Below, one piece after another: positions 14,814 to 44,272 of a DNA stretch of 64,000 nt. The DNA lies in assembly GCA_963746605.1 (NCBI GenBank), contig CAVVCH010000061.1, forward strand, positions 134,441 through 198,440, read 5' to 3'. Within the stretch, counting starts at the first letter, position 1. Every line of letters begins with the position of its first letter. Source of the DNA: an uncultured delta proteobacterium (GTDB lineage Bacteria > Desulfobacterota > RBG-13-43-22). Under the pieces are notes generated by a model, which was not told the origin of the DNA, searched no databases, and saw only the letters and a program-made list of their open reading frames with translations. The translations under genes and the position numbers were made by a program.

Positions 14814-14829
14814 TCCTGCTCGCTTCCCT

Positions 14830-15612: not shown

Positions 15613-15644
15613 GCCTGATCACCTTTTCTAGAGAAGGAGGACCT

Positions 15645-17058: not shown

Positions 17059-17973
17059 ATGGAAATATTACTCAGCGCGCTGGTCTCCGGATTGATGCTC
17101 GGCCTGGTCCTGGCCATCATGGCCCTGGGGTTGACCATCATCTTCGGCGTGATGGATATGGTCAATTTCGCCCACGGCGAATTTCTGATGATCGGCATGT
17201 ATGCCGGACTGCTGACCGCCCAGATCACCGGGGCCGACCCCTTGTTCGGCCTACCCGTGGCGGCCGCCATTGGCTTCCTCCTGGGGGTACTCTGTTATTA
17301 CGGCCTGGCCAGATACCTGCTTCGCGGCCCCATGGTGGCCCAGCTTTTAGGCACTTTCGGACTGATGCTCTTCCTGCGCAACCTGGCACTTCTGATTATG
17401 GGTTCGGAAGACCGGGCTCTGCACGAGGGGCTTCTGGTCGGCAAAAGTCTGGAAATCGGGTTGGGGGTTATCATTCCGGCCACCAAGCTGGCCGCCGCCG
17501 TCTTCGCGATCATGGCTTTTGGGGCCGTCTGGTTGCTGATGAATAAAACCAGGGTCGGCCAGGCGCTGACGGCCACCTCGCTGAACGCCGAGGGAGCCCG
17601 CTACATGGGCATTCACACGGAAAAGATGAACGCCCTGGCTTGGGGATTAGGAGCGGCTACGGCCACCCTCGCCGGAGCACTGTTGGTAAATTTCTGGTCG
17701 GTCAACCCTTTCGTGGGCCTGCTTTTTACCATGATCGCTTTTACGGTGGTGGCCCTGGGGGGATTCGGCAGCGTTCCCGGGGCCTTTTTTGCCGGCCTGG
17801 TAGTGGGGGTGATCACCGAACTGCCCGGGATCTGGGACTTCTTCACCTACACTTTTCATTTTCAATGGATGCAAAAAGTCCCCATGACTTCCTTTAAATA
17901 CACCTTCGTTTATCTGGCCTACTTCCTGATCATGGTTTTTCGGCCTCGGGGGCTCTTCGGATGGAAGCCGTAA
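17059..17973 (+). CDS. livH: branched-chain amino acid ABC transporter permease (LivH-like)
   Basis: Multi-TM protein with MDMVNFAHGEFLMIGMY matching the conserved LivH motif. Start taken at MEILLSAL. Confidence 0.8.
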   Translation: MEILLSALVSGLMLGLVLAIMALGLTIIFGVMDMVNFAHGEFLMIGMYAGLLTAQITGADPLFGLPVAAAIGFLLGVLCYYGLARYLLRGPMVAQLLGTFGLMLFLRNLALLIMGSEDRALHEGLLVGKSLEIGLGVIIPATKLAAAVFAIMAFGAVWLLMNKTRVGQALTATSLNAEGARYMGIHTEKMNALAWGLGAATATLAGALLVNFWSVNPFVGLLFTMIAFTVVALGGFGSVPGAFFAGLVVGVITELPGIWDFFTYTFHFQWMQKVPMTSFKYTFVYLAYFLIMVFRPRGLFGWKP

Positions 17974-18974
17974 AGAGCGCCGTCGACTTTTCAGATTTCC
18001 CGCGCCTGGATCGGATGGTGGCTGCGCTGGGAGCCGTCTTCCTTCTTTTTTTCCCCTGGATACCCCATTCCTCTTTCGCCATGACCACCATGATCCAGTT
18101 TCTGATGTTCAGCACCTACGGGATGGGCTGGAATACTATCGGCGGCTACGGCGGGCAGGTGGATCTGGGGAAAGCCCAATACGTGGGCATCGGGGCCTAT
18201 ACCACCGCGGTGATGCTGATCCGCTGGGATGTCCCCTTTTGGGTCTCCATGCCCATCGGGTTGGGTCTTTCGGTGGGCTGGTCGTTTCTGATCGGGTATC
18301 CCCTGTTTCGGTTGAAGGGGCATTATTTCGCCATCGCCACCATTGCCACCTCTCTGGTTCTGAAGGACGTTTTCGAGGTCTGGAATTTTTTGGGCGCCTC
18401 CCGGGGGCTGGAGATTTCCCCCATCAAGTACCAACCCCCCGACTTCCTGCGGCTGATTTTCCGGAGCGACGTTCCCTACTATTATATTATGCTGGGCATC
18501 TTTTTCCTCGGGCTCCTGATCATCAACTGGTTCAGAAAATCGCGTTTAGGTTTTCAACTGCGGTCGATCAAAGATAATGAGGATATCGCCCGTTCGCTGG
18601 GCATCGATGTCCATTGGGCCAAGATCAAGACCTATGCCGTGGCTACGGCTTTCGTCAGCGTGGTCGGTTCGTTTCATGCCTGTTACATCAAAAACATCGA
18701 ACCGGAAGATACGATGAGTCTGGATATCTCGGTGCTCATCGCCTTGATGGCCATGCTGGGCGGAGCCGGTTCTCTCTGGGGTCCGGTTATCGGGGCGGCC
18801 ATTCTGATCCCCATGAAAAGCTACTTCAAGGAATGGCTCGGTGCCCAGGCCGGACTGGTTGGATTGGACCTGATCCTTTATAGTGCTATTATCATGCTGG
18901 TAGCCGCCGTGGAGCCCCGGGGCATCTGGGGGTTCGTGGAAAAGGCCCGGAGAAAAAAAAGAAGCCAACCATGA
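17961..18974 (+). CDS. livM: branched-chain amino acid ABC transporter permease (LivM-like)
   Basis: Multi-TM permease that overlaps the livH end and precedes the ATPase genes. Confidence 0.8.
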   Translation: MEAVKSAVDFSDFPRLDRMVAALGAVFLLFFPWIPHSSFAMTTMIQFLMFSTYGMGWNTIGGYGGQVDLGKAQYVGIGAYTTAVMLIRWDVPFWVSMPIGLGLSVGWSFLIGYPLFRLKGHYFAIATIATSLVLKDVFEVWNFLGASRGLEISPIKYQPPDFLRLIFRSDVPYYYIMLGIFFLGLLIINWFRKSRLGFQLRSIKDNEDIARSLGIDVHWAKIKTYAVATAFVSVVGSFHACYIKNIEPEDTMSLDISVLIALMAMLGGAGSLWGPVIGAAILIPMKSYFKEWLGAQAGLVGLDLILYSAIIMLVAAVEPRGIWGFVEKARRKKRSQP

Positions 18975-19720
18975 GTCTGTTGGAAGTCAAAGAGGTCACC
19001 AAGGATTTCGGCGGACTGCGGGCCAATGACCGCGTTTCTTTCCGGGTGGAAAGCGGAGAAGTCATGGGTCTGATCGGCCCCAACGGGGCTGGAAAGACCA
19101 CCCTGTTCAACTGCATTGCCGGTTTTCACAGCCCGAGCGAAGGAACTATTTTTTTTGACGGCCGGGACATTACCCGGCTGAAGGATTTTGAGGTAGCCCG
19201 TCTGGGACTGGCCCGCACCTTCCAGGTCTACACCGCCGCCGGGGATCTGAATGTGCTGGAAAACATCATGATCGGCGTTTTTCTGAAGACCCGGTCCAGG
19301 AATGAGGCCCTCCGCAAGAGCCGGGAGATCATGGCTTTCATGGGCATCGAGGCCCAGGGGAAGAGCCTGATGGCCGAACTGCCGGTGGCCGCCCAGAAAA
19401 GAGTGACCCTGGCCACCACCCTGGCCGCGGATCCCAAAATGATCCTGCTCGACGAAGTGGCCGCCGGTCTCAACCCCTCCGAGATCGAAGAATTTATCGG
19501 CCTGCTGGAAGATATCAACCGGAAAAGGGGGATCACCCTGCTGCTCACCGAACATGTGATGGAGTTGGTCATGCGCCTGAGCCATCGGGTCGTCGTTCTG
19601 GAGAGCGGCCGGAAGATCGCGGAAGGGGAACCCGGGGAAGTGGTCAAAAGCGAGGCCGTGATCAAGGCCTACCTGGGGGAAAGCTACGTCAATAGAAAGA
19701 CGCAGAGCGCGGGGCGCTGA
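18971..19720 (+). CDS. livG: ABC transporter ATP-binding protein (LivG-like)
   Basis: Walker A GPNGAGKTT, an ABC signature region and Walker B ILLDEVAAG. Confidence 0.85.
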   Translation: MSLLEVKEVTKDFGGLRANDRVSFRVESGEVMGLIGPNGAGKTTLFNCIAGFHSPSEGTIFFDGRDITRLKDFEVARLGLARTFQVYTAAGDLNVLENIMIGVFLKTRSRNEALRKSREIMAFMGIEAQGKSLMAELPVAAQKRVTLATTLAADPKMILLDEVAAGLNPSEIEEFIGLLEDINRKRGITLLLTEHVMELVMRLSHRVVVLESGRKIAEGEPGEVVKSEAVIKAYLGESYVNRKTQSAGR

Positions 19721-19862
19721 GCGCTGGAAAAGATGGAAGAGGGAAGATGGAAGAGGGAAGAAAAAACCGACCCCTGACGCGGGTCGAAGTTCAGTTGGTA
19801 ACGGTTAACGGGTTATTGGCGCTACGCGATCTGCGCTCTGTGCATTACGCTCTGCCGATATT

Positions 19863-20567
19863 ATGCTGGAAGTACAAAACATAGAGGTCCGCTATTCCGG
19901 TCTGCCGGTGATCCAGGATATTTCCCTGAACGTCAGGGAAGGGGAGCTGGTTTCCGTGGTGGGGGGAAATGGGGCCGGCAAATCCACTCTGTTCAAGGCC
20001 ATTATGGGGGTCTTGAGGCCCACTCGGGGAGAGATCACCTTCCGGGGCGAGACGGTGTCCGGGAAGACCACGGCGGAAATAGTTCGTCGAGGGGTCGTCT
20101 GTATCCCGGAGGACCGGAAACTTTTCCGTCCCCTTTCGGTGGAAGAAAACCTGCACCTGGGTGCTTATATTCTCAAGGATCGGCATCAGCACCTGACCTT
20201 GATGGAGGAAGTCTTCGCCCTTTTCCCCCGCCTGAAGGAACGGCGCCGTCAGCCGGCGGCCACCCTGTCCGGCGGGGAACAGCAGATGCTGGCCATCGGG
20301 CGGGGACTCATGGCCGATCCGAAACTTCTGCTCCTGGATGAACCTTCCCTGGGGCTGGCCCCTTTATTGGTGGACGAGGTCTTCAAAGTGGTTAAGAAAC
20401 TGAAGGAGCGGGGCATGACCATTCTGCTGGTGGAACAAAATGTCCGGGAGGCCCTGGAGATATGCAGCCGGGGTTATATCCTGCAAACCGGGAGGATCGT
20501 TCAGGAAGGGACCGGAACCGAACTTCTTCAAAGCAACGCCGTCCGGAAGGCTTTTCTGGGGTTATAG
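19863..20567 (+). CDS. livF: ABC transporter ATP-binding protein (LivF-like)
   Basis: Walker A GGNGAGKST, signature LSGGEQQMLAIGRGL and Walker B LLLLDEPS. Confidence 0.85.
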   Translation: MLEVQNIEVRYSGLPVIQDISLNVREGELVSVVGGNGAGKSTLFKAIMGVLRPTRGEITFRGETVSGKTTAEIVRRGVVCIPEDRKLFRPLSVEENLHLGAYILKDRHQHLTLMEEVFALFPRLKERRRQPAATLSGGEQQMLAIGRGLMADPKLLLLDEPSLGLAPLLVDEVFKVVKKLKERGMTILLVEQNVREALEICSRGYILQTGRIVQEGTGTELLQSNAVRKAFLGL

Positions 20568-20577
20568 GGGGCGGGGT

Positions 20578-21258
20578 TTGGAATACGAGGCCCCTAAAAT
20601 CCTTCTCTGCGGCGACCAGGCTGTGAGCGTTGAATTCGGGGACAGCATCGACCCGAAAATAAACCGCAAGGTTCTTCAGTTTTTTGAACGGCTCCGCTCC
20701 CGACCTGTCCCCGGGATCAAGGATCTGATACCCAGTTATCGATCCCTCCTGGTTCAGTATGACCCGCTGAATCTCTCCGCCGAGACGTTGGTGAAGAGCC
20801 TCAGGAAGGAGCTGGCCGGCATAGGGCCGGCGATTTCCGAAACGGGACGGACGATCACGATTCCGGTTTACTACGGCGGATCCTTCGGACCGGACCTGGC
20901 GGAGGTGGCCGAGTACCATGGAATGACCCCGGCGGAAGTCATCGCCCTTCATGCGGCAGTCACGTATCGGGTCTACATGATCGGGTTCAGTCCGGGCTTT
21001 CCTTTTCTAGGGGGGTTGGATCCCCGCCTGTATACGCCCAGAAAAAAAACTCCCCGGGAAAAAGTGCCGGCCGGCAGTGTGGGTATTGCCAATCAGCAAA
21101 CCGGCATCTATTCTCTGGACAGTCCCGGAGGCTGGCGATTGATCGGCCGGACACCGATAAAACTCTTCGATCTTTCCAGGGAAGAACCGTTGCTCCTCGG
21201 GGTCGGCGACCGGGTTCTTTTCCAACCGATTACGGAAAAAGAATTTGACGACGATTAG
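20578..21258 (+). CDS. pxpB: 5-oxoprolinase subunit B (PxpB / KipI / allophanate hydrolase subunit 1 family)
   Basis: KILLCGDQAVSVEFGDSIDP... IPVYYGG...GFSPGFPFLGGLD is characteristic of PxpB. Probable TTG start at 20578 just after livF. Confidence 0.7.
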   Translation: MEYEAPKILLCGDQAVSVEFGDSIDPKINRKVLQFFERLRSRPVPGIKDLIPSYRSLLVQYDPLNLSAETLVKSLRKELAGIGPAISETGRTITIPVYYGGSFGPDLAEVAEYHGMTPAEVIALHAAVTYRVYMIGFSPGFPFLGGLDPRLYTPRKKTPREKVPAGSVGIANQQTGIYSLDSPGGWRLIGRTPIKLFDLSREEPLLLGVGDRVLFQPITEKEFDDD

Positions 21259-22186
21259 GATCATCAAGCCCGGTCCCTTGACGACCGTCCAGGATTTAGG
21301 CCGGGTGGGATACCAGGATCGGGGCGTGCCGGTCTCCGGGGCCGTCGATTCATACGCCCTGCGGCTGGGTAATCTGATCGTCGGCAACCGGGAAGGCGAG
21401 GCGGCTCTGGAAATTACCCTGGGGGGATTTGAGGTTGAATTTGTTCAGGAGGTTGCTTTTGCCTTGACCGGGGCTGAATCCGCCGCCCGGTTAAACGGGG
21501 AGGACGTTTCCTTCTGGAGAAGGATTGCCGCTTCCAAGGGAGACCGGTTATTCATCGACCACAGCCGGACCGGGGCCCGGGTCTACCTGGCTCTGGCCGG
21601 AGGGATCGCTGTTCCTTTGGTCATGGGCAGCAAATCGACCTACCTTCGCGGTGGGTTCGGAGGATACCAGGGGAGGGCTTTGCGGAAGGGAGATCGCTTG
21701 CATTGCGGACCGGCACGGGAGGCCTTCATTCGTGAAATTCCTCTCGGATTAAGGCCGGCACCCTCAGGCCACCCTACCTTGCGCGTGGTGCTGGGACCCC
21801 AGGACGAAGAAATTACGGACGAAGGACTTTTGACGTTCCGGTCTTCCCCCTATGTCCTGACCAGGCAGATGGATCGCATGGGTTGCCGGCTTGAAGGTCC
21901 AAGGATAACCCATCGGAGAGGCGCGGATATCATTTCCGACGGTACCAGCTTCGGCTCCATCCAGATCCCTGGAGACGGTCAGCCCATCATTCTCTTAGCC
22001 GACCGCCAGACCACGGGGGGCTACGTGAAGATTGGCTCGGTCATCGCCGCGGACTGGCCTCTGATCGCCCAGGCCTTGCCCGGCCGGGTCGTTCGTTTTC
22101 AGACCGTCGGGCTGGAAGAAGCCCAGGAAAGCTATTTTCAAAGAGAATCTGCCCTGACCCGCTTTCTAACGTCATTAGGTGATTGA
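21245..22186 (+). CDS. pxpC: 5-oxoprolinase subunit C (PxpC / KipA / allophanate hydrolase subunit 2 family)
   Basis: IKPGPLTTVQDLGRVGYQDRGVPVSGAVD and DRQTTGGYVKIGSVIAADW motifs. Overlaps the pxpB end. Confidence 0.75.
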   Translation: MTTIRIIKPGPLTTVQDLGRVGYQDRGVPVSGAVDSYALRLGNLIVGNREGEAALEITLGGFEVEFVQEVAFALTGAESAARLNGEDVSFWRRIAASKGDRLFIDHSRTGARVYLALAGGIAVPLVMGSKSTYLRGGFGGYQGRALRKGDRLHCGPAREAFIREIPLGLRPAPSGHPTLRVVLGPQDEEITDEGLLTFRSSPYVLTRQMDRMGCRLEGPRITHRRGADIISDGTSFGSIQIPGDGQPIILLADRQTTGGYVKIGSVIAADWPLIAQALPGRVVRFQTVGLEEAQESYFQRESALTRFLTSLGD

Positions 22187-22279
22187 CCTTTGATCGGTTT
22201 GAGGGCATATTAGGGAATATTGGCCCGAGGTTCAGGGCCGGCTATTCTTTACGAAAGAACAGGAGTGAGAGAAACGGCG

Positions 22280-22489
22280 ATGGTGGATATCAAATTGCTT
22301 GAAAAAGTCTTGAAGGAGTTTGAGCAGGAGAATGAAGAGGATCCGATCGAGGATCCCGAATACATCAAAGGGATTAATTTTATTGCCGATGAAATGCGGA
22401 CCCTGGACGAAAACTATTTCGCCAAGGGAATCATTGATTTCATTCGCGAGTATGACCGACGAAGGAAAAAAAAGATGGGAAAGTCTTGA
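22280..22489 (+). CDS. small acidic hypothetical protein (70 aa)
   Basis: MVDIKLLEKVLKEFEQENEEDP... with RBS AGGAGTGAG. Heads a tightly spaced four-gene group. Confidence 0.4.
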   Translation: MVDIKLLEKVLKEFEQENEEDPIEDPEYIKGINFIADEMRTLDENYFAKGIIDFIREYDRRRKKKMGKS

Positions 22490-22527
22490 TTGCAATTTCC
22501 AAATAATACATAAAAAGGAGTTTTGAA

Positions 22528-22908
22528 ATGAGAATAGCTTTTCCGGTAACGGAAGATCGAGGAATGGAAAGTCCGGTCTATGGGCATTTTGGTTCAGCCC
22601 CCCTCTTTATGGTAGTCGACAGCGCCAATGGCACACTCGAACCCATCGGAAATACGGATGCCCATCATGCCCACGGGCAATGCCAGCCGATCAAGGCCTT
22701 GGGGGGGACCCCCGTGGACCTGGTCGTGGTGGGTGGAATCGGCGGCGGAGCCCTGATGAAGCTCCAGGGATTGGGAATAAAGGTTTTCAGGGCCGTGGAA
22801 GGCAGCGTGATGGAAAACCTGGAACTGCTCAAATCCGGCCAATTGCCCGAGTTCGCTGTGAATATGACCTGTGCCGGACACCAGGGCGGCCAGGGCTGCC
22901 ATCACTAA
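22528..22908 (+). CDS. NifX/NifB-like protein (dinitrogenase FeMo-cofactor biosynthesis domain, PF02579)
   Basis: 126 aa, MRIAFPVTEDRG...VYGHFGSAPLFMVVD...VDLVVVGGIGGGALMKL is the canonical fold signature. Confidence 0.65.
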   Translation: MRIAFPVTEDRGMESPVYGHFGSAPLFMVVDSANGTLEPIGNTDAHHAHGQCQPIKALGGTPVDLVVVGGIGGGALMKLQGLGIKVFRAVEGSVMENLELLKSGQLPEFAVNMTCAGHQGGQGCHH

Positions 22909-28930: not shown

Positions 28931-29213
28931 TCAAGGTGGAGGTAGAGTCGGCGCCCTGCCTTGACTACCTAAAAATTTTCCTGTGTCTTTAAAAAAGTCG
29001 CTGATATAGGAGATTTTTCCCTCCTCGAACTCCATCAGGGTCACCCCCTCATTCTCGTAGGGTTCCCCGCGTCGGTTTTTCCCTCGATTGCTCCAATGGA
29101 CCGCTCCCCGGTTCCCCTGAACAATGGTCCGGTGAACGGTGAAGACCAACTCCGGGTATTGGCGGAAGAGGATCTGGAGTGAAAAAGTCAGAAATGAGTT
29201 TTTCGGCATTCAC
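28931..29213 (-). pseudogene. SnoaL-like/NTF2-fold protein remnant whose N-terminal segment (GTG start, NAEKLISDFFTPD) is in a different frame from the body; short and likely disrupted
   Basis: C-terminal ...GEPYENEGVTLMEFEEGKISYISDFFKDTG matches the SnoaL-like C-terminus. A frame change near 29170. Starts 5 nt after the ACAD stop. Confidence 0.35.
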
Positions 29214-29218
29214 AGCGG

Positions 29219-30361
29219 CTACAATCCCATCATCTTGGCCACGATGGTCTTCATGATCTCGTTGGTGCCGGCAAAGATGGACATGACCCGCACGTCCCGC
29301 CAGGCGCGGGCAATGGGGTATTCCTCGCAGTAGCCGTAACCGCCGTGGAGCTGGAGGCATTCGTCGGCTACGCGTCGGGCCATTTCGGTGGTCCAATATT
29401 TGGCCATGGAGACCTCGGTGACCACATTTTTTCCCTCCAGATGGTCGGCGATCAGTTTGTCCAGGAAGGTGCGCCCCAGCTTGACCTCGGTGGCCATCTC
29501 CACGATCTTGAACTGGTTGACCTGAAACTTGGAGATCGGTCTGCCGAAGGCGGTGCGTTCCTTCGTATACTTGATGGTTAAATCCAACATATGTTCCGCC
29601 CCGGCGACGGCGGCGATGGCGCACATCAGCCGTTCCTGCTGGAGCTTCTGCATCAGCATGATAAAGCCGGTCCCCTTAAGGCCCAATCGATTGCCTTTGG
29701 GGATGCGACAGTCGGTGAAATAGAGCTCGGCCGTATCCTGGCTGTGCCAGCCGATTTTTTTTATTTTTTTGCCTTTTTCAAAACCGGGGGTCCCGGCCTC
29801 CACCAGGAAGAGGTCGATGGCCTGGTAGGGTTCGCTGACCTCGGGGTCCCGGGCGGCCAGAACCAGCAGGTCGCAGTTGATTCCGTTGCTGATAAAGGTT
29901 TTCTGGCCGTTGAGGATCAATTCGTCCCCCGCTTCCACCGCCGTGGTCCGGATGGCCGCCAGATCGCTTCCCGTGTTGGGCTCGGTCATGGCGATGGCGG
30001 TGATGAGGTCCCCGGAACAGCAGCCGGGCAGGTATTTCCTTTTCATTTCTTCCGTGCCGAATTCGGTAAGGTAAGGGACGACCACATCACTGTGCAAGGG
30101 GGCGGCCAAGCCACTGTGGTTGGTCTTGGTCAATTCCTCACAGACGATCACGGAATAGAGAAAGTCGGCCCCGGACCCGCCGTATTCCTCCGGGACCATG
30201 GGGCAGAGAAAACCCTGGTCGCCCATCTTCTTCCAGGCGCTTCGGGGGACGATCCCCGCTTCTTCCCATTCGTCAATATAGGGAATCACCTCTTTTTCAA
30301 AAAACTTCCGTAAGGCGTCGCGAAAGATGCGGTGTTCTTCGGTATAGTGTAAAATGTCCAT
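29219..30361 (-). CDS. acyl-CoA dehydrogenase
   Basis: 380 aa with ...TEPNTGSDLAAIRTTA..., ...ISNG... and a C-terminal ...HGGYGYCEEYPIARAWRDVRVMSIFAGTNEIM (catalytic Glu in the YGY..E context). Confidence 0.85.
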   Translation of the reverse strand: MDILHYTEEHRIFRDALRKFFEKEVIPYIDEWEEAGIVPRSAWKKMGDQGFLCPMVPEEYGGSGADFLYSVIVCEELTKTNHSGLAAPLHSDVVVPYLTEFGTEEMKRKYLPGCCSGDLITAIAMTEPNTGSDLAAIRTTAVEAGDELILNGQKTFISNGINCDLLVLAARDPEVSEPYQAIDLFLVEAGTPGFEKGKKIKKIGWHSQDTAELYFTDCRIPKGNRLGLKGTGFIMLMQKLQQERLMCAIAAVAGAEHMLDLTIKYTKERTAFGRPISKFQVNQFKIVEMATEVKLGRTFLDKLIADHLEGKNVVTEVSMAKYWTTEMARRVADECLQLHGGYGYCEEYPIARAWRDVRVMSIFAGTNEIMKTIVAKMMGL

Positions 30362-30513
30362 AGTCCATTTTCCTTTTTGTATTTACGGGTAATTTCTCGT
30401 CATCCCCGAAGGTCTTTATCGGGGATCCACTGTTCCTTAAGAAAAGCCTGGATTCCCGCTCAGAAGCGTTGCGGGAATGACGCTTTATGAGGTGGTATCT
30501 ATTGTGAAACCAT

Positions 30514-30867
30514 TTATAAAATCGGGACCGGATAGCGGTTCCCGTCCCGGTCATAAAAAATCACTCTCCCGGTTCTTTTCCAGAGGGTTTCGTCCATGAA
30601 ACAATAGAAGGCCTTGATTTCCCCCGGTTCGATGCGCAGGTCTCCCGAGGGCACGAGGTGGTCAAACCTCCGGATCCCTCCGGAAGTTTCCAGGTCGAAA
30701 TGGCTGGGCACAACCAATCGGGGCCAGAGCCCTGGTTGGTAAGATGGATTTCCAGGTTCTGGTCGAACATCTTCAGCCCGCAGCAGGTTTTGAAGCTCAA
30801 GATGTCTTCGGCCGAAGAGTTCATGATGAAACGGATTTCGAGCATGTGGTATTTTTCTCAGCAGCAA
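30514..30867 (-). pseudogene. DUF35 (zinc-ribbon/OB-fold, BbsA/ChsH2-C-like) thiolase-partner protein, N- and C-terminal parts in different frames (ATG 30845 frame, then the 30867..30514 frame)
   Basis: C-terminal LVVPSHFDLETSGGIRRFDHLVPSGDLRIEPGEIKAFY resembles the DUF35 OB-fold. ...SFKTCCGLKMFDQ sits in the other frame. A terminator-like hairpin (30522-30548) and T-rich tract overlap the stop. Confidence 0.45.
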
Positions 30868-30869
30868 TT

Positions 30870-32078
30870 TTACTGTATCTTTCCCACAATGGCGATGCTG
30901 CAGACGTTCATGAAGGGCACCCCGCCCAGATTGTGGGTCAGGCCGAAGCGGGGATTTTCGATTTGCCTTTCTCCGGCCCTTCCATGAAGCTGGAGATACA
31001 TTTCATAGAGCATGCGCAGGCCCGAGGCCCCGATGGGATGGCCGAAGCATTTCAGCCCACCATCCACCTGACAGGGAATCCCTCCCCCGTCCCGATTGTA
31101 GAAACCGTCCAAGGAATCCCGCACGGCCCGGCCCCGTTCCGAAATATGCAGGTCCTCGTAGGTGACCAGTTCGGTGATGGAGAAGCAGTCGTGGAGTTCC
31201 ATCATGCTGATCTCCCGGCGTGGGTCGGTGATCCCGGCTTCCTGATAGGCCCGCCGGCTGCAGACGTCGGTGGTCACAAAGTGGTCCCCGTCCCATTGAT
31301 TAAAGCCCATTTCGGCCCCGCCGCTTAAGGCCAGTTGCAGGGCCTTGACGGTGACAAAATCCTTTCGTCCCATCTCCTTGGCCTTTTCCACGGTGGTGAC
31401 GATGGCGCAGGCCGCTCCGTCGCTCACCCCGCAACAGTCGAACAGCCCCAGAGGATGGGCGATGATCGGGGCGGCCATGATCTGTTCCACGGTCACGGCC
31501 TTACGCAAGTGGGCCTTAGGGTTGAGGACTCCGTTGGCGTGGCTCTTGGCCGAAACCTGGGCCAGCGCGCGTTTGAGTTCCTGGTCCGGAATGCGGTATT
31601 TGGCCGCGTAAGCGCTGGCCAGTTGGGCAAAGGCCCCGGGGGCAGAGATGTTGGGGAACCAGAGCCAGTTCAAAGAGCCCAGCCCGGAACCCGGATTGGG
31701 CAGCCCGCCGTAGCCCGTGTCCTTGAGCTTCTCCACACCCATGGCCAGACAGATATCGTAGGCCCCGGAGGCCACGGCATAGACCGCCCCCCGAAAAGAC
31801 TCGGTTCCGCTGGCACAAAAGTTTTCTGTCCGGGTGGCAGGTATCAAGGGCAGGCGGAGGGTCATGGTAAGGGGAAGGGCGCTTTTGCCCACGTTGATCT
31901 CCTCCATGCAGGTGCCCAGCCAGGCGGCCTCGATATCATCGGGCACGATTCCGGAATCCTCCAGACACTCGGCGAAAGCCTCCACCATCAGTTCTTCGGC
32001 CCCCACATCCCAGCGCTCGCCAAAGCGGGTGCAGCCCATGCCGAGGATGGCGACTTTATCTTTGATACCGGTAGCCAT
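30870..32078 (-). CDS. thiolase, SCP-x/nonspecific lipid-transfer-protein type (acetyl-CoA C-acyltransferase)
   Basis: 402 aa with nucleophile context ENFCASGTESF and C-terminal CFGHPIGASGLRM with catalytic His. No second C-terminal Cys, as in SCP-x-type thiolases. Confidence 0.85.
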   Translation of the reverse strand: MATGIKDKVAILGMGCTRFGERWDVGAEELMVEAFAECLEDSGIVPDDIEAAWLGTCMEEINVGKSALPLTMTLRLPLIPATRTENFCASGTESFRGAVYAVASGAYDICLAMGVEKLKDTGYGGLPNPGSGLGSLNWLWFPNISAPGAFAQLASAYAAKYRIPDQELKRALAQVSAKSHANGVLNPKAHLRKAVTVEQIMAAPIIAHPLGLFDCCGVSDGAACAIVTTVEKAKEMGRKDFVTVKALQLALSGGAEMGFNQWDGDHFVTTDVCSRRAYQEAGITDPRREISMMELHDCFSITELVTYEDLHISERGRAVRDSLDGFYNRDGGGIPCQVDGGLKCFGHPIGASGLRMLYEMYLQLHGRAGERQIENPRFGLTHNLGGVPFMNVCSIAIVGKIQ

Positions 32079-32089
32079 ACAGCTCTCCT

Positions 32090-33430
32090 TTAGAATTTAA
32101 ACAGCTTTTCTATCAGTTGGGATTTCATCAGATCCCCTTCGATTTTCAGTTTTCCGCTAGTGAAGGCCTGCATGGCCGGCAATTGACCGGTGATCAGCCC
32201 CAGAAAGTCGGCATCGGCCATGTGGATGGTGGTGGTCGGCTTTGCATGAAGCCCCGGGCCTACGGTGCAGGAGGCCTCTTTGATCACCGCCTGCCAATCC
32301 CCGCCCTCGGGCCCGGAGATCCGGAACTGGAAGACCACGTCCACCCCGGCCGCTTTTTCGGCCTGAAAGGCCTCCGGCATCCGCTCGAACACGGACCGAA
32401 CCGTAGGTCCGGAGGGTGAGGATTTGGCCGCCTCCGGCTCCCTTTGCCCGCCGGTCAGCATTTCTCCCAGGGCCGCGGTGGCATTGTAAAATTCCTTTCC
32501 TCCTACGAGGGTGTTGATGGCCGTCCAATTTTGGTGAACCTCTTCCGGGGTAGGGACATTCCCTCCTTCACCGATCAGGATTCCCGGCCCGGAAACGATC
32601 GCCGCCTTGTTGAAATACCCCGCCCCGGCGTTGAAGACCTGGCCGGTCTCGGCGCAGGCGGCGGAGCAGAGATAGATGACCAAGGGGGCCGACGAATTCG
32701 GGTTTAAGTCTTTCAAAGAGATCGGGGGGCAGGATGTCTTCGGTCAGGCGAGTGGCGGCGATAGGGGCCACGGTGTTGACCTTGATGTTGTATTTCTCGC
32801 CCTCCAGTTTCAAGGTGTTCATCAAGCCCACCAACCCCAGTTTGGCTGCCGAATAGTTGGCCTGTCCGAAATTGCCGAACAAACCGGCGGCCGAGGTGGT
32901 CAGGACGATTCGGCCGTATTGCTGTTCCCGCATCTGCCGGAGCGCCGGCCGGGTGACATAATAGGCCCCATCCAGATGGACGGAGAGGACCTGATTCCAA
33001 TCCTCGGAGTCCATCTTGAGCAGGGTCTTGTCCCGGAGGATTCCGGCGTTGTTGATCAGGATATCCACGCGGCCAAAGGTCTCCAGGGCTTTCTCGACAA
33101 TGGCTTCGCCGCCTGCGGGAGTGGATACGGAATCGTAACTGACCACGGCTTCGCCGCCCAGGGCCTTGATTTCTTCAACCACCCTGTCAGCCGGACCGGT
33201 AGAACCAGTGCCGGAACCGTCCCGGGAGCCGCCCAGATCGTTCACCACCACTTTCGCTCCGCGCTTGGCCAAGTCCAGGGCATAGGTCCGACCCAGACCG
33301 GCCCCGGCCCCGGTGACGATCGCCACCTGACCGTCAAATCGGATTTCGGCCTTTTTTTCCTCTGTTGTCGGCGGCTTGACCGGCAGAGGCACGGCTTTCC
33401 AGAAGTAGCCGGAGAACCCGCGGTCCTTAT
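32090..33430 (-). repeat. paralogous SDR+SCP2 module; partner at ~34926..36210 in the adjacent gene (~85-90% amino-acid identity)
   Basis: Near-identical stretches, e.g. RVDILINNAGILRDKTLLKM...GRIVLTTSAAGLFGNFGQANYSAAKLGLVGLMNTLKLEGEKYNIKVN.VAPIAATRLTEDILPPDLF.RLKPE, occur in both proteins. Confidence 0.6.
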
Positions 33431-34826
33431 CGGTGTACCGCTTCCGGAAAGAGAGCCTGACCGGCTGGCCGACCCAGACTTCGGCCAGTTCGCAATCGGT
33501 AAAATCGGCCATGAACCGCCCCCCGTCATCAAATTGGATCATGCCGTAGACTGCCGGCGGGTCGACAGAAACCGTCAACAGGTCTCCGGTAAAGGTCTTG
33601 ATAAAGGCCGATTTTTCGGCAAACTCGTACTCTTCCTGGGTATGGAATTTCCGGCAGTCCGGGTTGACGCAGATATCCATTTTTGGAAACTGAGGGGTGC
33701 CGCAGGCCGTACAGCGGCCGCCCACCAGGCCGAGGATCATCTGCCGTTTCCGATAGAGGACGGTCATGGCCGTCTGCGTGGGGGCCTCGGCCCTGATCCC
33801 CATCTCGGTCTGGATCAGGTCTCGGAACTTGAGGAATTTGGGATATTGGTCGATCGTCTTTTTGTTCTTCAGAGACCCTTCAATCCCCACCCGAGGGGCT
33901 AGATTTAGGATATGCTCGGTCACCCGGAAATACAGCGCGTCGCAGCCCTGTCCGAAACCGGCCAGCAGGATCCGATCTCCAGGCTTGGCCTGCTCCAGGG
34001 CTTGGGTAAACAGGACCAGGGGATGGGCGGCGCCGGTTTCCCCGCAGACCTCGTGGAGGTTGTCCTGAACTTTTTCCGGAGCAGCCCCCAGTTTCTTGGC
34101 GATGTTGCGGTGTTCGGCCTTGAAGAAGCAGGGGAAAACAAGCTTATCCACGTCGTCCATGGTGATGGACAGTTTTTCAGGAGACCGTTTACCGCCGCGG
34201 GGATGATCTTGGCCATATCCTTCATCCCGGACCCAGCGCTCTTCCCACATGTAATCGTATTTGTTTTGGGAGCCGCGGTAGTGATCGATAAAATCCAGAG
34301 AGAGGCTATAAGAACCCAGGAATTCAGCAATTACGCTGCTATTGCCGACCAGGAGTGAGGCGGCCCCGTCGCCGAACCACATCTCATAAAAATAGGCGGC
34401 CTTGGTCTCCCGCTTGTCGGCCGCGGTGACCAGGATGCTTTGGGGGACGCCTTCCCGAAGGGAGTTCAAGGCGGTGATCAGCGCGCTGGTGCCGGAACGA
34501 AGGGAGGCGGTAACGTCCTGGGTCAGCAGGTCATCCCGAAGGTTCAGGGCCGTTTTGACAATAGCGGCGTTGAGGCGGTCGGCAAAGGGCAGCGTGGTGG
34601 AGCACAGGTAGAGGGCCTCCATCGCCGATTTATCCGCTCCCTTCAGGCAGTCCTGCGAGGCGGCAACGGCCATGGTCAGGCTGTCTTCATCCCAGTTGCA
34701 GAAAGAACGCTCACCCTGGGCGACCATGACGATGGCCGGGGCAAACCAGCCCATTTCCTGAAAGATGCTCATGCGGTTTAGACGGAGCCGGGGAAGGTAG
34801 CCGCCGTAGGATACGATGCCGATCAT
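32090..34826 (-). pseudogene. four-domain fusion (HMG-CoA-synthase-like + DUF35 + short-chain dehydrogenase + SCP2 sterol-carrier), interrupted by a +1 frameshift at the G5 run 32683-32687 (ORFs 32568..34826 and 32090..32716)
   Basis: N-terminal MIGIVSYGGYLPRLRL is the HMGCS start. CTACGT...NPDCRKF...VWVGQPVRLSFRK is DUF35. TGAGAGLG...YSAAK is SDR. The C-terminus continues in the other frame as PLVIYLCSAACAETG...GKLKIEGDLMKSQLIEKLFKF (SCP2). Deleting one G restores EFVGPLVIYLC, matching the paralog RLKPEYVTPLVLYLC. Confidence 0.75.
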
Positions 34827-34925
34827 GGGACCTCCTTAAAATTCAAATCCGAAATTCGACGCACGAAACTCGAAACAAAAAACAATATTCAAAATTCAAA
34901 TGACCGAAACAACTTCACCTCCCGA

Positions 34926-37032
34926 TCAGAACTTAAAAAGTTTTTCTATGAGCTGGGATTTCATCAGGTCGCCTTCAATTTTCAGTTTGCCCGAGGTGTA
35001 GGCCTGCATGGCCGGCAGTTTTCCGGCCATCAAATCCAGGAAATCTTCGATCCGACATTTTAATGAGGGTCGTCGGTTTTTCGTGGAGCCCCGGGGTGGT
35101 AGTACAGGTCGCGTCTTTGATGGCGGTAAACCAATCTCCCCCGCCCGCTCCGGAAATCCGGAATTGAAAAACCACGTCCACCCCGGCGGCCTTGTCGGCC
35201 TGAAAGGCCCGGGGCATCTCATCAAAAACCGACCGAACGGTGGCCCCGGGGGCCTCGACCGGCGCCGCCTCGGTTGGGGAGGGGGGGCCGGTCAATAGGA
35301 CGCCCAAGGCCTCGGTGGCATTGTAAAATTCCCGGGCCCCGGTCATCCGGAGAATGTCCGGCAGGCGGGCGGAAAGGCTCTCGGGAGAAGGGATCTGGTG
35401 CCCGTCGCTGAGCATTACCCCGGGACCGGAAAGTACGGCGGCCCGATTGAAAAAACCCATCCCGGCATTATAGACCGCGCCGCTCACCGGGCATTGTTCG
35501 GCGCAGAGGTAGAGGACCAGCGGGGTTACGTATTCGGGTTTGAGCCGGGCGAAAAGATCGGGGGGCAGGATGTCCTCGGTCAGACGGGTGGCGGCGATGG
35601 GGGCCACGGCGTTGACCTTGATGTTGTATTTTTCGCCCTCCAGTTTCAACGTGTTCATCAAGCCCACTAACCCCAGCTTGGCCGCCGAATAGTTGGCCTG
35701 CCCGAAATTGCCGAACAGACCGGCCGCCGAGGTGGTCAGGACAATTCTTCCGTACCCCTGTTCCCTCATCCTTTGGAAGGCTGCCCGGGTTACGTAGAAG
35801 GCCCCGTCCAGATGAACGGCCCGGACCTGTTCCCAATCCGCTTTCTCCATTTTAAGCAGGGTCTTGTCGCGCAGGATGCCGGCATTATTGATCAGGATAT
35901 CCACGCGGCCAAAGGCTTCGACGGCCCGCCGGGTGATGGCTTCCCCGCCTTCCGGGGTCGATACGGAATCGTAGCTGGCCACGGCCTCACCGCCCAGGGC
36001 CATAATTTCCGCAACCACCCGGTCCGCCGGACCGGCCGATCCGGTCCCGGATCCATCCCGAGCGCCGCCCAGGTCATTGACCACCACCCGTGCGCCTCGC
36101 CGGGCCAGTTCCAGGGCGTAGGCCCGGCCTAACCCGGCCCCGGCGCCGGTGACGATGGCCACCCGGCCGTCCAGGCGAATCTCCATCTTTGGGGTCTCCC
36201 CATATTCGAAGATTCCCTGGTCAATGACCACCTCGCCTGTCTCGGCGTTGATGACCCGCCAGAGGGCCTTCCCTTCGTCCACCCGCCAGATCTGGGTTTT
36301 GATGGCGTTCCCGGGATAAAGCGGGCTGCGGAAACGATTGGCCATCCGTCGTACCTTCTCCGGGGCGCCCGGGACCAGTTGCCGGATCAAGGCCCGGGAA
36401 GCATAGCCGTGGGTGCAAAGGCCGTGCATGATGGGTCGGGTAAAACCGGCCGTCTTGGCAAATTCCAAATCCACGTGCAGGGGGAAGATGTCCCCGGAAA
36501 GACGGTAAATCAGCGGCTGATCGACCGGGGGGGTAGCCGGCACCTCAAAATCCGGAGGTCGTTCCGGGAACGAAATGGCATTCTTAGGGGCATCTTCCCC
36601 GCCAAAGCCCCCGTCCAAACGTGCCAAGACGGTAACGATGCTGGTGAAAAGTTTTCGGCCGCCTTCATTCCGGGTGTCAAACTCGGCCACGATCAGCGCT
36701 CCCTTGTCGGGGCCTTTGTCGTAATAATGGGTGATGGCCCCCTCGGTTATCAGTTTTCCCTCCGAAGGGATGGGCTGGTGAAAGATCAACTCCTGCCCGG
36801 CGTGAAGAATTCCCGCCAGGTTGACATTGCTGATGGAGGCCAACTCCGGCATGAAATCGTACAGCGTCACAATGCCAAAGCTCGGCAAGACCCTGAGGTC
36901 CTTTTCGTAACAGTAGTCTAGATCGGAAAAACCCGCACCCACGCCCAGGGCATAGAGGACCGTGTCCTTCCAGGTATAGTCCTTGGAAAAGGGGCCGATC
37001 TTTTTTCCAATGCTGTCCAAGTTAAGGGCCAT
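34926..37032 (-). pseudogene. MFE-2-like fusion (2x MaoC hot-dog hydratase + SDR + SCP2), C-terminal SCP2 end displaced by a 1-nt insertion near 35058 (ORFs 34975..37032 and 34926..35225)
   Basis: N-terminal YTWKDTVLYALGVGA is the hydratase-2 N-domain, then TGAGAGLG...YSAAK (SDR). The tail ...TLIKMSD then shifts to EDFLDLMAGKLPAMQAYTSGKLKIEGDLMKSQLIEKLFKF, identical in sequence to the paralog's C-terminus. Confidence 0.75.
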
Positions 37033-37077
37033 CTTTTTTCCTCCCGGTTCAAATTGTGCTGTTGGGTATCGCGCTGG

Positions 37078-37725
37078 TTAGGGGCTGTCGGCCCGGTTTT
37101 CTCCCCCTCTGTCGAAGGCCGGGATCAAGATATATTTCAAGGTCTCTTTGGCCAGCGCCATGTATTCCGGACGTTCGATCTTAAGGAGCGACCGAAAAAA
37201 GGTTTCCCCGGAAATAAAATTATGAATGGCATTCATGATGACCAGGACCTGCATTTTAACGGAAACGGAGACGCTTTCCTTGTCCCGGCTGAGACCCATG
37301 GAGCGGGCGATATCGGAAATGAATTCCGGAACCCTGAAATCCAGGCTGGTTTCAGGGCGGGTCTTTCCGAAATATCGAAAAAGGACCAGGTTGGATATTT
37401 CCGGGTGTTGGAAGAGAAAGGCCACAATCCGGTCGATGGAAATGTCCATTCTCTGGGCCAGGGGCCGCCCGTGGATTATTTTTTCCACGGCCACCAGTTG
37501 CTGGCGCAAGTCCTCGTTGATATCCAGGACCACGGCCTCGTAGAGGTCCCCTTTTTCGCCCCAATGGTAATACAGCGTGGAAATGTCAATACCCACCCGT
37601 TGGGCGATCATGCGGGTGGTCGTTCCATGATAGCCGTATTCACCAAAAAGCTGCCGGGCTATCTTGAGGATCCGGGCCTTCATGGATTCCGGATCCCGCC
37701 GGGCTTTTTCCAAAGGGGTGCTCAC
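37078..37725 (-). CDS. TetR/AcrR-family transcriptional regulator
   Basis: N-terminal HTH ARILKIARQLFGEYGYHGTTTRMIAQRVGIDISTLYYHW. It is the first gene of the minus-strand cluster. Confidence 0.8.
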   Translation of the reverse strand: MSTPLEKARRDPESMKARILKIARQLFGEYGYHGTTTRMIAQRVGIDISTLYYHWGEKGDLYEAVVLDINEDLRQQLVAVEKIIHGRPLAQRMDISIDRIVAFLFQHPEISNLVLFRYFGKTRPETSLDFRVPEFISDIARSMGLSRDKESVSVSVKMQVLVIMNAIHNFISGETFFRSLLKIERPEYMALAKETLKYILIPAFDRGGENRADSP

Positions 37726-38046
37726 AACCGGTCTCCAAAAAATGTTTCCATCAAATGATGGAGAAACCCTAGCATGATGGGGGACAAAGTCAAGAGAAAA
37801 TTTTGTGGAAAGTGCATTTCCAAAGAATTGCGCAGCAACTACTCAAAAAATCCACGAATACCGAATTCGCAAACCGGGGAGGGTGTTCGACCCGAGGCAG
37901 GCTGACCGGGTTTTTAGTAACGAAATCGTAAAGGTGAATAGGTAACCCGGCGGAAAGGTCCCCTGACTCGAAAGGCCCACGGCCGGCTACCCCATGTTGG
38001 CCTCAGTCTTGCTGATCAACCGGTCAGGTGAACGGGTATGGTTCTC

Positions 38047-38448
38047 ATGAAAAAAGGTGTCAATTCAAATTCAGCCTCAAAAACGGGTGGCTTTACGCTG
38101 TTGGAAACGGTGATCGCCTTGGGCCTTTTTAGCCTGGTCCTTTTATTTTCCACCCACACCTTGGTAACCATCATCAAGACCAACGCCTTCAGCCAAAATC
38201 GAACCGGTGCCTTGGCCCTGGCCCAGGGGAAGCTGGAGTCTCTGAAGTCGCAGCCGGGGTTGGTCCTCACAGGGGAAACGGAGGCGCAGGTTACCAATGG
38301 AAACCTGCCGGTGGTTTACCGCCGAGAAACCTCCATTTCTCCGGGGACGCCAGTGGGCTGTGCCTTGGTGACCGTGAAAGTCACCTGGCCCTCGGAAACG
38401 GCCTCCAAACCGCACCAGGTGGAACTGGCCACCCTGATTGCCGAGTAA
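38047..38448 (+). CDS. prepilin-type N-terminal cleavage/methylation domain protein (type IV pilin or pseudopilin-like)
   Basis: Class-III signal G|FTLLETVIALGLFSL followed by a hydrophobic helix. 133 aa. Confidence 0.65.
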   Translation: MKKGVNSNSASKTGGFTLLETVIALGLFSLVLLFSTHTLVTIIKTNAFSQNRTGALALAQGKLESLKSQPGLVLTGETEAQVTNGNLPVVYRRETSISPGTPVGCALVTVKVTWPSETASKPHQVELATLIAE

Positions 38449-43056: not shown

Positions 43057-44272
43057 AAGGGGGACGAGACTGATGGGCAAGAAGAAATTTGAACGGACGA
43101 AGCCACATGTGAATGTGGGGACGATCGGGCATATTGATCATGGGAAGACGACCTTGACGGCGGCGATCACGCTCTGTTTATCGAAGAGCGGATTTGCGAA
43201 TTTCATACCCTTTGACGAGATCGACAAGGCGCCGGAAGAGAAGGAGCGGGGGATCACGATCGCGACGGCCCACGTGGAATACGAGACCAAGAAGCGGCAT
43301 TATGCGCACGTGGACTGTCCGGGGCACGCGGACTATATCAAGAACATGATCACCGGAGCGGCTCAGATGGACGGAGCGATTCTGGTGGTTGGAGCGGATG
43401 ACGGGCCGATGCCGCAGACGCGGGAGCATATATTGCTGGGACGTCAGGTCGGAGTGCCGTATATAGTAGTTTTTTTAAACAAGGTGGACATGGTCGACGA
43501 TCCGGAGCTGATCGAGCTGGTGGAACTGGAGCTGCGGGAGCTGTTGAGCAAGTATGAGTATCCCGGGGACGATATACCGATCATCAAGGGATCGGCGCTG
43601 AAGGCCTTGGAGTGCGGCTGCGGGAAAGGGGACTGTCCTGCCTGCCAGCCGATATTGGAGCTGATGGACGCGATCGACAACTATGTACCGGAGCCGGTGC
43701 GGGATATAGAGAAGCCGTTTTTGATGCCGGTGGAGGACGTCTTCAGTATTTCGGGCCGGGGGACGGTCGTCACGGGCCGGGTGGAACGGGGGATGATCAA
43801 GGTTGGTGAGGAAGTGGAGATCGTGGGGATTCGCCCGACGATCAAGACGATCTGCACCGGGGTGGAGATGTTCCGGAAGACCCTGGACCAGGGCCAGGCG
43901 GGAGACAACGTGGGGTTGCTGCTGCGGGGGACCAAGCGGGACGATGTGGAGCGGGGCCAGGTCGTGGCCAAGACGGGATCGATCACGCCGCACACCAAGT
44001 TCAAGGCGGAATCGTATATTCTGTCGAAAGAGGAAGGCGGGCGGCACACGCCGTTTTTCAACGGCTATCGGCCGCAGTTTTATTTTCGGACGACGGACGT
44101 GACCGGGGTGGTGACCTTGCCGGAAGGGGTGGAGATGGTGATGCCGGGCGACAACGTGTCGATGACGGTGTCCTTGATCATGCCCATCGCCATGGAGAAG
44201 GAACTGCGGTTTGCCATTCGGGAGGGGGGCCGGACCGTAGGCGCCGGCGTGATCTCCGAAATCTTGGAATAA
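43057..44272 (+). repeat. ~1.2-kb near-identical direct repeat (tuf copy 1); partner at 59708..60923
   Basis: Identity begins 16 nt upstream of the ATG (AAGGGGGACGAGACTG) and ends at the stop codon. At least three synonymous substitutions. Confidence 0.9.
43073..44272 (+). CDS. tuf: elongation factor Tu (copy 1, tufB-like position after the tRNA operon)
   Basis: [28 protein letters not shown]-domain motifs. 399 aa. Confidence 0.97.

Follow-up and report, generated by a model that had tools for sequence, protein, structure and literature searches.

Systems in which a thiolase works together with DUF35 and other acyl-CoA enzymes have been described from both bacteria and archaea. In Pseudomonas fluorescens, the PfACAT/HMGS-DUF35 complex combines a thiolase with a DUF35 protein whose 3-hydroxy-3-methylglutaryl-CoA (HMG-CoA) synthase unit (HMGS, also HMGCS) lacks the E-C-H-N tetrad, and this complex only cleaves acetoacetyl-CoA, performing thiolysis without condensation (Nat Commun 2026, PMC12960953). 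The same study counted 1001 such bacterial loci and left their pathway unassigned. Likewise, in Sulfolobus it has been shown biochemically that DUF35 assembles a ketothiolase with a short-chain dehydrogenase/reductase (SDR) and a MaoC enzyme (bioRxiv 10.1101/2024.07.05.601840). Here we analyze a minus-strand gene cluster that combines related parts in a new arrangement. It lies at 29219-37725 of a 64,000-nucleotide stretch, hereafter the window, taken from an uncultured delta proteobacterium (GenBank assembly GCA_963746605.1, contig CAVVCH010000061.1, positions 134,441 to 198,440 of the forward strand).

We propose, with a probability of about 0.68, that these genes form an autoregulated, TetR-controlled catabolic operon encoding one full turn of R-specific, peroxisome-type acyl-CoA beta-oxidation, in which the thiolase would be docked on a scaffold contributed by a large fusion protein. 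The architectural variant is apparently new and apparently restricted to one clade, while its chemistry is of an expected kind. In the order of transcription, the features are:

37788-37793, minus strand: -35-like box TTGACT of the operon promoter, with CTTGAC conserved among the aligned upstream regions
37747-37762, minus strand: candidate TetR operator, the palindrome TCCATCATTTGATGGA, conserved upstream of the TetR gene
37078-37725, minus strand: TetR-family regulator of 215 aa with a GTG start, gene 1 of the operon (Pfam TetR_N, E 7e-16)
34926-37032, minus strand: MFE-2-like protein with the two hot-dog halves of a hydratase-2, a (3R)-hydroxyacyl-CoA dehydrogenase-type SDR and an SCP2 domain (Pfam and PDB matches); reading frame broken
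32090-34826, minus strand: fusion protein with an HMGCS/PhlA-like domain, DUF35 (zinc ribbon and OB fold), a second MFE-2-type SDR and SCP2; reading frame broken
30870-32078, minus strand: SCP2-type (DUF35-associated) thiolase, 402 aa, intact (Thiolase_N and Thiolase_C_1)
30514-30845, minus strand: homologue of s113, a conserved protein of ~110 aa, frameshifted (from orthologue comparison)
29219-30361, minus strand: acyl-CoA dehydrogenase (ACAD), 380 aa, intact (all three ACAD domains in Pfam)
28931-29218, minus strand: remnant of a SnoaL-like gene (SnoaL_2 profile positions 46-101 only; by tblastn, residues 50-118 only)

Organization and conservation of the operon

An earlier note on this DNA, made by a model from the letters and their open reading frames (ORFs), had described a TetR-headed, beta-oxidation-like cluster that is not a standard fad (fadBA) cluster. 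This description is borne out by the Pfam searches, with TetR_N in the first gene (37078-37725) and MaoC, MFE-2-type SDR, SCP2, DUF35 and SCP2-type thiolase parts in the genes that follow. Specifically, the ORF at 34975-37032 contains the MFE-2_hydrat-2_N, MaoC_dehydratas and adh_short domains, whereas the ORF at 32568-34826 contains an ACP_syn_III/HMGCS-like domain, the zf-ChsH2 and OB_ChsH2_C domains that make up DUF35, and adh_short. In NCBIfam, neither of the two large proteins receives a specific name, nor do the ACAD and s113; the best matches of the ACAD there are short/medium-chain types, every one of them under its cut-off.

Relatives of the HMGCS-like/DUF35 scaffold were sought in one genome per species and were recovered in 423 species genomes, and the best ~80 loci were compared in detail. 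Of the best 80, 78 are labelled as metagenome-assembled genomes (MAGs) of Desulfobacterota, belonging to Desulfomonilaceae, Syntrophales, Desulfatiglandales and Desulfobacteraceae. The gene cluster recurs far beyond chance: the order TetR, MFE-2-like protein, fusion, thiolase, (s113) and ACAD is found in nearly every one of the ~80 compared loci that is long enough to contain it. At least 40 loci have the TetR gene upstream of that for the MFE-2-like protein, the ACAD gene lies downstream of the thiolase gene in 41, and the fusion gene adjoins the thiolase gene in 58.

The region in front of the TetR gene is conserved along with the genes. Every one of the 47 loci that include the N-terminal part of TetR has the palindrome TCCATCAnnTGATGGA ~32 nt ahead of the start codon (-30 to -36), as an exact copy in 35 and with one or two mismatches in the other 12. 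An exact match to TCCATC-N4-GATGGA is present in 37 loci, as a single copy in 36; by our estimate fewer than 0.1 chance matches to the palindrome are expected in ~1.4 Mb. Nearly all of the 47 aligned regions also share a CTTGAC box, located ~29 nt further upstream than the palindrome, and a scan for consensus promoters and terminators, which missed this conserved box, was uninformative. Lying immediately 3' of the promoter boxes, the palindrome is, from its position and conservation, a strong candidate for an operator through which TetR would regulate its own operon. Divergent from the TetR gene, on the plus strand at 38038-38448, is a gene for a 136-aa protein whose translation has a type IV pilin-like N-terminus (…GGFTLLETVIALGLFSLVLL…).

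The scaffold, the dehydrogenase repeat and the thiolase

Among PDB chains, the N-terminal domain of the fusion protein is closest to PhlA (1e-36), followed by the archaeal HMGCS 6esq_I (4e-28), and for the DUF35 part the matches are the corresponding chain of the same archaeal complex, 6esq_E (2.5e-10), and PhlB. In an AlphaFold2 (AF2) model of the fusion protein with a mean confidence (pLDDT) of 88, Foldseek places the N-terminal domain on 6esq_I with a TM score of 0.91, and reports 49% identity to the rat MFE-2 dehydrogenase for the same model. The alignment with 6esq_I reveals that the HMGCS tetrad is lost, with Glu replaced by Thr (STT), Cys by Ser (TAS), His by Pro (FPC) and Asn by Glu (GET), and all four replacements are kept across the loci. 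Since all four catalytic residues are replaced, the HMGCS-like domain is predicted to be a pseudo-enzyme, a member of a dead-HMGS subgroup that also includes PhlA and PfHMGS-DUF35. The formation of a branched HMG-type product by this domain was ruled out on account of the same four replacements.

An exhaustive search with the 490-aa scaffold part recovered 548 clusters at 50% identity (E<1e-30), and the whole 911-aa architecture, as seen in the intact orthologues, constitutes one of them. Nearly all the other clusters consist of ~480-aa proteins with only the HMGS-like domain and DUF35. These shorter relatives occur in acyl-CoA contexts, such as TetR-scaffold-thiolase, ACAD-ACAD-scaffold-thiolase-s113 homologue-thiolase, or a ligase followed by the scaffold. 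Rare variants carry one SCP2 domain (~600-614 aa), two SCP2 domains (722 aa) or an SDR without SCP2 (800 aa), and these SCP2-only and SDR-only forms fit a scaffold that picks up partner domains. The variant scaffolds are found at L067, L082, L077 and L078 and in the proteins P0210 and P0220; L067 and L082 are without an MFE-2-like gene and have unrelated surroundings. By analogy with the homologous complexes, the HMGCS-like domain and DUF35 most likely serve as a docking scaffold for the neighbouring thiolase.

Both SDR domains of the operon are of the (3R)-hydroxyacyl-CoA dehydrogenase type found in MFE-2. The MFE-2-like protein matches Candida MFE-2 (2et6, 1.5e-134), human HSD17B4 (1e-92) and human hydratase-2 (1s9c, 4e-49) in the PDB, and over 278 aa the SDR of the fusion protein shares 53% identity with the rat MFE-2 dehydrogenase 1gz6, a region that includes the MFE-2-specific C-terminal extension. 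Within its VVVNDLGG sequence, the SDR retains an Asp of the NAD type. In all family members listed, the hydratase motif YRLSGDxF[AQP]LH preserves the catalytic Asp and His, with the N-P of SGDxNPLH being replaced by F-[AQP]. The domain order of the MFE-2-like protein is hydratase, SDR and SCP2, as against SDR, hydratase and SCP2 in canonical MFE-2.

In the DNA, the SDR(-SCP2) module shared by both large proteins forms a direct repeat of ~0.9 kb, at 32080-32982 and 34916-35818 of the window. Within the same genome, the SDR identity between the two large proteins has a median of 81% and reaches up to 100%, compared with 75-77% between orthologues across genomes (L001-L085), and in 14 of 55 loci the MFE-2-like SDR is closer to the fusion SDR encoded in its own operon than to any other. 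As the copies within a genome are more alike than orthologues between genomes, these sequence comparisons indicate that the two copies probably undergo recurrent gene conversion.

The thiolase passes the NCBIfam model NF004810 (PRK06157) with 672 bits against a cut-off of 403 bits. Its best matches in the PDB are 7yvy (2.5e-54), the thiolase of the archaeal complex (6esq_A, 1.3e-50), BbsB (1e-39) and type-1 SCP2-thiolases, while the Ltp2-like 6ok1 is matched at 3e-14 only. The window protein carries the motifs NFCASG, HDCF and GHPIGASG, and among 58 loci CASG is present in 54, HDCF in 58 and GHP in 57. The conservation of the Cys nucleophile, HDCF and GHP marks it as a true thiolase, unlike the Ltp2/Sal aldolases.

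The small gene after the thiolase gene, s113, had been taken in the earlier note for a stand-alone DUF35 gene, and this part of its reading fails. There is no Pfam match for the window ORF (30514-30867), nor for the intact orthologue at E<1, and the AlphaFold model of s113 is an Ig-like beta-sandwich. A divergent DUF35 was thus ruled out, as s113 has neither a Pfam match nor a predicted fold with the zinc ribbon and OB fold of DUF35 (PF12172/PF01796); the scan did recover DUF35 in the fusion protein, along with the SCP2 signatures. s113 represents an unannotated family of ~110 aa with a conserved FKTCCGLKMFDQNLEI motif (L001, 14817-15158; L088, 10752-11078), and it sits after the thiolase gene even in distant loci with just 45% identity in the scaffold. 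The thiolase and the scaffold may have in s113 a further partner that has gone unrecognised.

Reading frames in the window

The reference for the reading frames was L001, a syntenic metagenome contig with 88-93% DNA identity to the window and with matching flanks. All of its operon genes are intact, namely those for TetR (224 aa), the MFE-2-like protein (701 aa, with SCP2), the fusion (911 aa, with SCP2), the thiolase (403 aa), two small proteins (144 and 113 aa), the ACAD (380 aa) and the SnoaL-like protein (118 aa). In the window both SCP2 domains are out of frame with their own protein. The SCP2 fusions of the earlier note therefore exist as intact proteins in the orthologues, but not in the window as assembled. 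The SCP2 domain of the fusion protein is encoded by an overlapping ORF of its own (32090-32716; SCP2, E 3.5e-18), and the last 39 residues of the SCP2 domain of the MFE-2-like protein fall in the ORF 34926-35225. Relative to L001, the window has a 1-nt insertion at ~35045 in the MFE-2-like gene and another at ~32690 in the fusion gene, and the spacing of the internal direct repeat shifts from 2836 to 2837 nt where both insertions lie. A 2-nt indel at ~30715 affects the 113-aa gene.

Two further differences from L001 are the absence from the window of the 144-aa gene (s144) and the loss of ~150 nt from the 5' end of the SnoaL gene (blastn). s144 is a weakly SnoaL_3-like gene located between the thiolase gene and s113, and it is found only in L001 (14378-14812) and L008. 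A SnoaL_2 gene occurs 3' of the ACAD gene in four loci, and accessory NTF2/SnoaL-like genes vary among the relatives.

A frameshift is also present outside the cluster. The dsrA gene is split at ~4800-4812, such that the ORF 4367-4828 covers DsrA residues 3-149 and the ORF 4794-5678 covers residues 146-437. As this break lies beside dsrB and dsrMKJOP-like genes, it implies that the assembly carries indel errors. The closest relatives are long-read 'MFD' MAGs; several of these are broken in the same genes at other positions, and most of the other MAG loci are unbroken. We consider the frameshifts of the window to be probable assembly artefacts.

The alternative is that the operon of this genome is a decaying pseudogene cluster, with the frameshifts and deletions being real mutations. 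At least four frameshifts are present in the 64 kb, three of them small indels inside the 8.5-kb cluster, and it is this clustering, together with the missing s144 and the ~150-nt deletion in the SnoaL gene, that keeps real operon decay under consideration and counts against a working operon in this genome. About 30 further genes of the window look full length, with rpoB and rpoC intact. However, the gene for DsrA, which a dsr-based sulfate/sulfite reducer should need, is frameshifted too, pointing to indel errors in the assembly, and the related long-read MAG loci break in the same genes at different positions; a decay specific to the cluster was downgraded for these two reasons. Moreover, two of the three indels fall within the ~0.9-kb internal repeat, which is error-prone for consensus polishing. 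The TetR, thiolase and ACAD genes are intact and their products 92-96% identical to the orthologues (TetR 92% and ACAD 96% to those of L001), while s144 and the SnoaL gene are missing from most loci anyway. On balance, genuine decay appears unlikely.

The dsrAB and dsrMKJOP-like genes of the window also support what the earlier note had said of the host, that it is an anaerobe; it is a sulfate- or sulfite-reducing anaerobe of the Desulfobacterota type. The dissimilatory sulfite reductase region (4367-14756, plus strand) comprises dsrA, dsrB (5689-6834) and DsrM-, DsrK-, DsrO- and DsrP-like genes (9728-14756). It further includes a CobB/CobQ-type amidotransferase gene (7232-8659), and a small ORF sits where dsrD is expected. 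The window has two EF-Tu (tuf) copies on the plus strand, one at 43073-44272, which precedes the secE/nusG/rplK region, and one at 59706-60923, which follows fusA. Both are 93-94% identical in DNA to the single tuf held in L001.

Proposed function and comparison with known systems

In the proposed catabolic operon, the acyl-CoA dehydrogenase would convert an acyl-CoA to the 2-enoyl-CoA, and the MaoC hydratase-2 domain would hydrate this to the (3R)-hydroxyacyl-CoA. The NAD-type, MFE-2-like SDR domain would then oxidize it to the 3-ketoacyl-CoA, from which the SCP2-type thiolase would release acetyl-CoA (propionyl-CoA in the case of a 2-methyl-branched substrate). The thiolase would dock on the dead-HMGS/DUF35 part of the 911-aa protein, and the fused second dehydrogenase and SCP2 domain would keep the enzymes of the final two steps close to each other and to the hydrophobic acyl tail. 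The TetR regulator probably binds the conserved palindrome and would be released from it by an acyl-CoA or fatty-acid effector. We infer that the proteins form a physical complex and channel the intermediate, that the cycle is catabolic and R-specific, and what kind of effector acts on TetR; as to direction, the presence of an ACAD, an SDR of the NAD type, control by TetR and the set of accessory genes all argue for catabolism.

Neighbouring genes were compared by gene clustering across 82 loci. The commonest accessory gene, in 19 loci, encodes an AMP-forming ligase whose nearest relatives are long-chain fatty-acid-CoA ligases, followed by a dienoyl-CoA-reductase-like flavoprotein (9 loci), a crotonase (9 loci) and a metallo-beta-lactamase-fold protein (7 loci). 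Given these neighbours and the breadth of the operon, the most likely substrates are ordinary or methyl-branched medium- to long-chain fatty acyl-CoAs. Downstream of the operon, L002, from a Desulfomonile MAG, has genes for an amidohydrolase, an alpha/beta-hydrolase, two HGD-D proteins, a ligase and a BcrAD/BadFG ATPase (15859-22733), and L004, from a different MAG, combines a gene of the dienoyl-CoA-reductase-like kind with a set for a biotin-dependent acyl-CoA carboxylase (14804-21428). The operon may be a module that is plugged into different feeder pathways by lineage.

The earlier note had gone further and assigned the cluster to beta-oxidation of the steroid side-chain or benzylsuccinate type. 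In this reading, the operon would degrade steroid side chains, intermediates of the benzylsuccinate/alkylsuccinate type or alicyclic compounds, and it draws on the occurrence of DUF35, SCP2-type thiolases, MaoC hydratases and SCP2 in such pathways, on the clear homology of BbsB to the thiolase, on the HGD-D/BcrAD-type genes of L002 and the carboxylase set of L004, and on a family III CoA-transferase found in 3 loci. However, the trio of hydratase, DUF35 and thiolase that the note regarded as its hallmark dissolves on inspection, since the real DUF35 shares its chain with the dead HMGCS-like domain, whereas in ChsH2/Shy it is fused to a hydratase. The thiolase, which keeps its Cys nucleophile and HDCF, is not an aldolase of the Ltp2/Sal type, and it scores 139 bits with the NCBI BbsB model, whose cut-off is 750 bits. 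Genes for a BbsH-type crotonase or BbsEF set, a heteromeric ChsE-type ACAD pair, steroid-ring degradation or bss/ass fumarate addition do not recur around the operon among the 82 loci. A nearby CoA ligase or transferase, for which the note had suggested a search, is represented by the ligase in 19 loci; the family III CoA-transferase is confined to just 3 of the 82 and is not seen in the window cluster. The commonest accessory gene is a fatty-acid-CoA ligase of the long-chain type, and the presence of scaffold relatives in 423 species genomes suggests a common substrate. A specialised pathway of this kind is therefore improbable.

Equally improbable is a biosynthetic direction, in which the scaffolded thiolase would condense an acyl-CoA with acetyl-CoA, the tethered SDR would pull this unfavourable reaction by reducing the 3-ketoacyl-CoA and the MaoC domain would dehydrate the product, as in the archaeal DUF35 fatty acid synthase or in the supply of polyhydroxyalkanoate (PHA) precursors: the ketothiolase/DUF35, SDR and MaoC enzymes are indeed parts of the Sulfolobus fatty acid synthase complex, a partner enzyme pulls condensation in the archaeal thiolase/HMGCS/DUF35 complex (PMC12960953) and all the enzymes here are of R-specific types, but the SDR carries the NAD-type Asp of catabolic MFE-2, regulation by a TetR repressor, an acyl-CoA ligase next to the operon and neighbours of the crotonase and dienoyl-CoA-reductase-like kinds are in keeping with catabolism, the sole characterized bacterial complex of a dead HMGS with an HDxF thiolase did thiolysis and no condensation (PMC12960953), and no PHA synthase was seen nearby.

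Besides the clustered frameshifts, several points weigh against the operon as a catabolic, peroxisome-type beta-oxidation unit. An R-specific hydratase, a reductase and a thiolase also serve PHA synthesis and reverse beta-oxidation, so that the catabolic direction is a probable one. The resemblance of the ACAD to short/medium-chain enzymes fits poorly with SCP2 domains for bulky lipids. Genes for electron transfer flavoprotein (ETF) neither adjoin the operon nor recur among the 82 loci. The basis for complex formation and channelling, which would be expected by analogy, lies in homologous systems. Finally, the searchable literature yielded no description of the fused proteins, or of SCP2/MFE-2 systems in sulfate reducers; a paper on long-chain fatty acids in Desulfomonile gives generic fad gene counts only.

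Within the proposed reading as regulated beta-oxidation, a more tentative extension is that the 911-aa protein is a natural covalent 'metabolon'. Here, the dead HMGS and DUF35 would clamp the thiolase, the fused SDR would hand over the 3-ketoacyl-CoA and SCP2 would hold the tail, so that the last two steps are channelled, possibly with a shared CoA-binding site, and s113 would be a further subunit. We regard this as a doubtful but instructive possibility, since it would give the ~1000 orphan bacterial HMGS/ACAT/DUF35 loci a role, namely thiolase docking in beta-oxidation. Apart from this extension, the operon places one clade of the bacterial HMGS/ACAT/DUF35 loci, whose purpose outside secondary metabolism the 2026 study had not settled for more than 1000 cases, in a regulated beta-oxidation context, and suggests that the scaffold acquires pathway partners (SDR and SCP2) by fusion. 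It would also represent a bacterial counterpart of the peroxisomal MFE-2/SCP2 system that is widespread in sulfate-reducing and syntrophic Desulfobacterota, whose turnover of fatty-acid- and hydrocarbon-derived carbon matters in anoxic sediments. With the conserved candidate operator and its TetR regulator, the substrate or effector could be approached directly by experiment.

Several known systems share parts with this operon. ChsH1-ChsH2/Ltp2 (Shy/Sal) and BbsAB resemble it in that DUF35 docks a thiolase-fold enzyme in a beta-oxidation-like pathway. However, in ChsH1-ChsH2/Ltp2 (Shy/Sal) the MaoC hydratase carries the fused DUF35, which docks an aldolase of the thiolase fold, whereas in the Bbs system DUF35 is a separate protein (BbsA), accompanied by the BbsH crotonase and the BbsEF CoA-transferase, none of which is present in the cluster. 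The operon is thus neither a ChsH2-Ltp2 nor a Bbs system, as their defining features were tested and are absent. PhlACB and MucABC provide another parallel, with PhlA, the best solved match of the N-terminal domain, also being without the catalytic Cys, PhlB being a DUF35 protein and PhlC being thiolase-like; in contrast to the thiolase here, which keeps HDCF, PhlC and MucB have lost HDxF and serve secondary metabolism by acylating small acceptors of the aromatic or tetramic type. The fatty acid synthase complex of Sulfolobus acidocaldarius shares the set of thiolase, DUF35, SDR and MaoC enzyme. Its parts are separate proteins that act in synthesis with an NADPH enoyl reductase and without HMGS-like or SCP2 domains, whereas the present operon has an FAD-type ACAD and an NAD-type SDR; as the ACAD replaces the enoyl reductase, this is not an archaeal fatty acid synthase.

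The likeness is greater to the thiolase/HMGCS/DUF35 complexes. All three modules are homologous to those of the archaeal complex (6ESQ), but the archaeal HMGCS is active and anabolic, functioning in the mevalonate pathway, whereas here the domain appears dead, DUF35 is fused and the context is catabolic; with the tetrad lost, this is not an HMG-CoA-forming complex. PfACAT/HMGS-DUF35, a representative of the short ~480-aa form, similarly has a fused HMGS-like domain and DUF35 lacking the tetrad, beside a thiolase with Cys, HDxF and GHx, and the same pattern of four tetrad replacements has been reported for its inactive HMGS unit (PMC12960953). Unlike it, the scaffold described here adds an MFE-2-type SDR and SCP2, and is embedded in a full operon with TetR, hydratase and ACAD; the P. 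fluorescens complex was viewed by its authors as still outside any dedicated pathway. With peroxisomal MFE-2 (HSD17B4, yeast Fox2) and SCPx, the operon shares an MFE-2-type dehydrogenase, the double hot-dog hydratase-2, SCP2 and an HDCF thiolase, and with yeast MFE-2 the presence of two dehydrogenase copies. It differs from them in the order hydratase-SDR-SCP2, for which reason it is not a canonical MFE-2, in the second SDR-SCP2 on the scaffold, in the absence of an SCP2 fused to the thiolase, in its hydratase motif (GDxF[AQP]LH as against GDxNPLH) and in being bacterial and TetR-regulated. Given the true thiolase, the DUF35 carried on an HMGCS-like domain, the neighbours of the fatty-acid type and the distinction from ChsH2-Ltp2 and BbsAB, the closest analogues of this operon are peroxisomal MFE-2/SCPx and the thiolase/HMGCS/DUF35 complexes.

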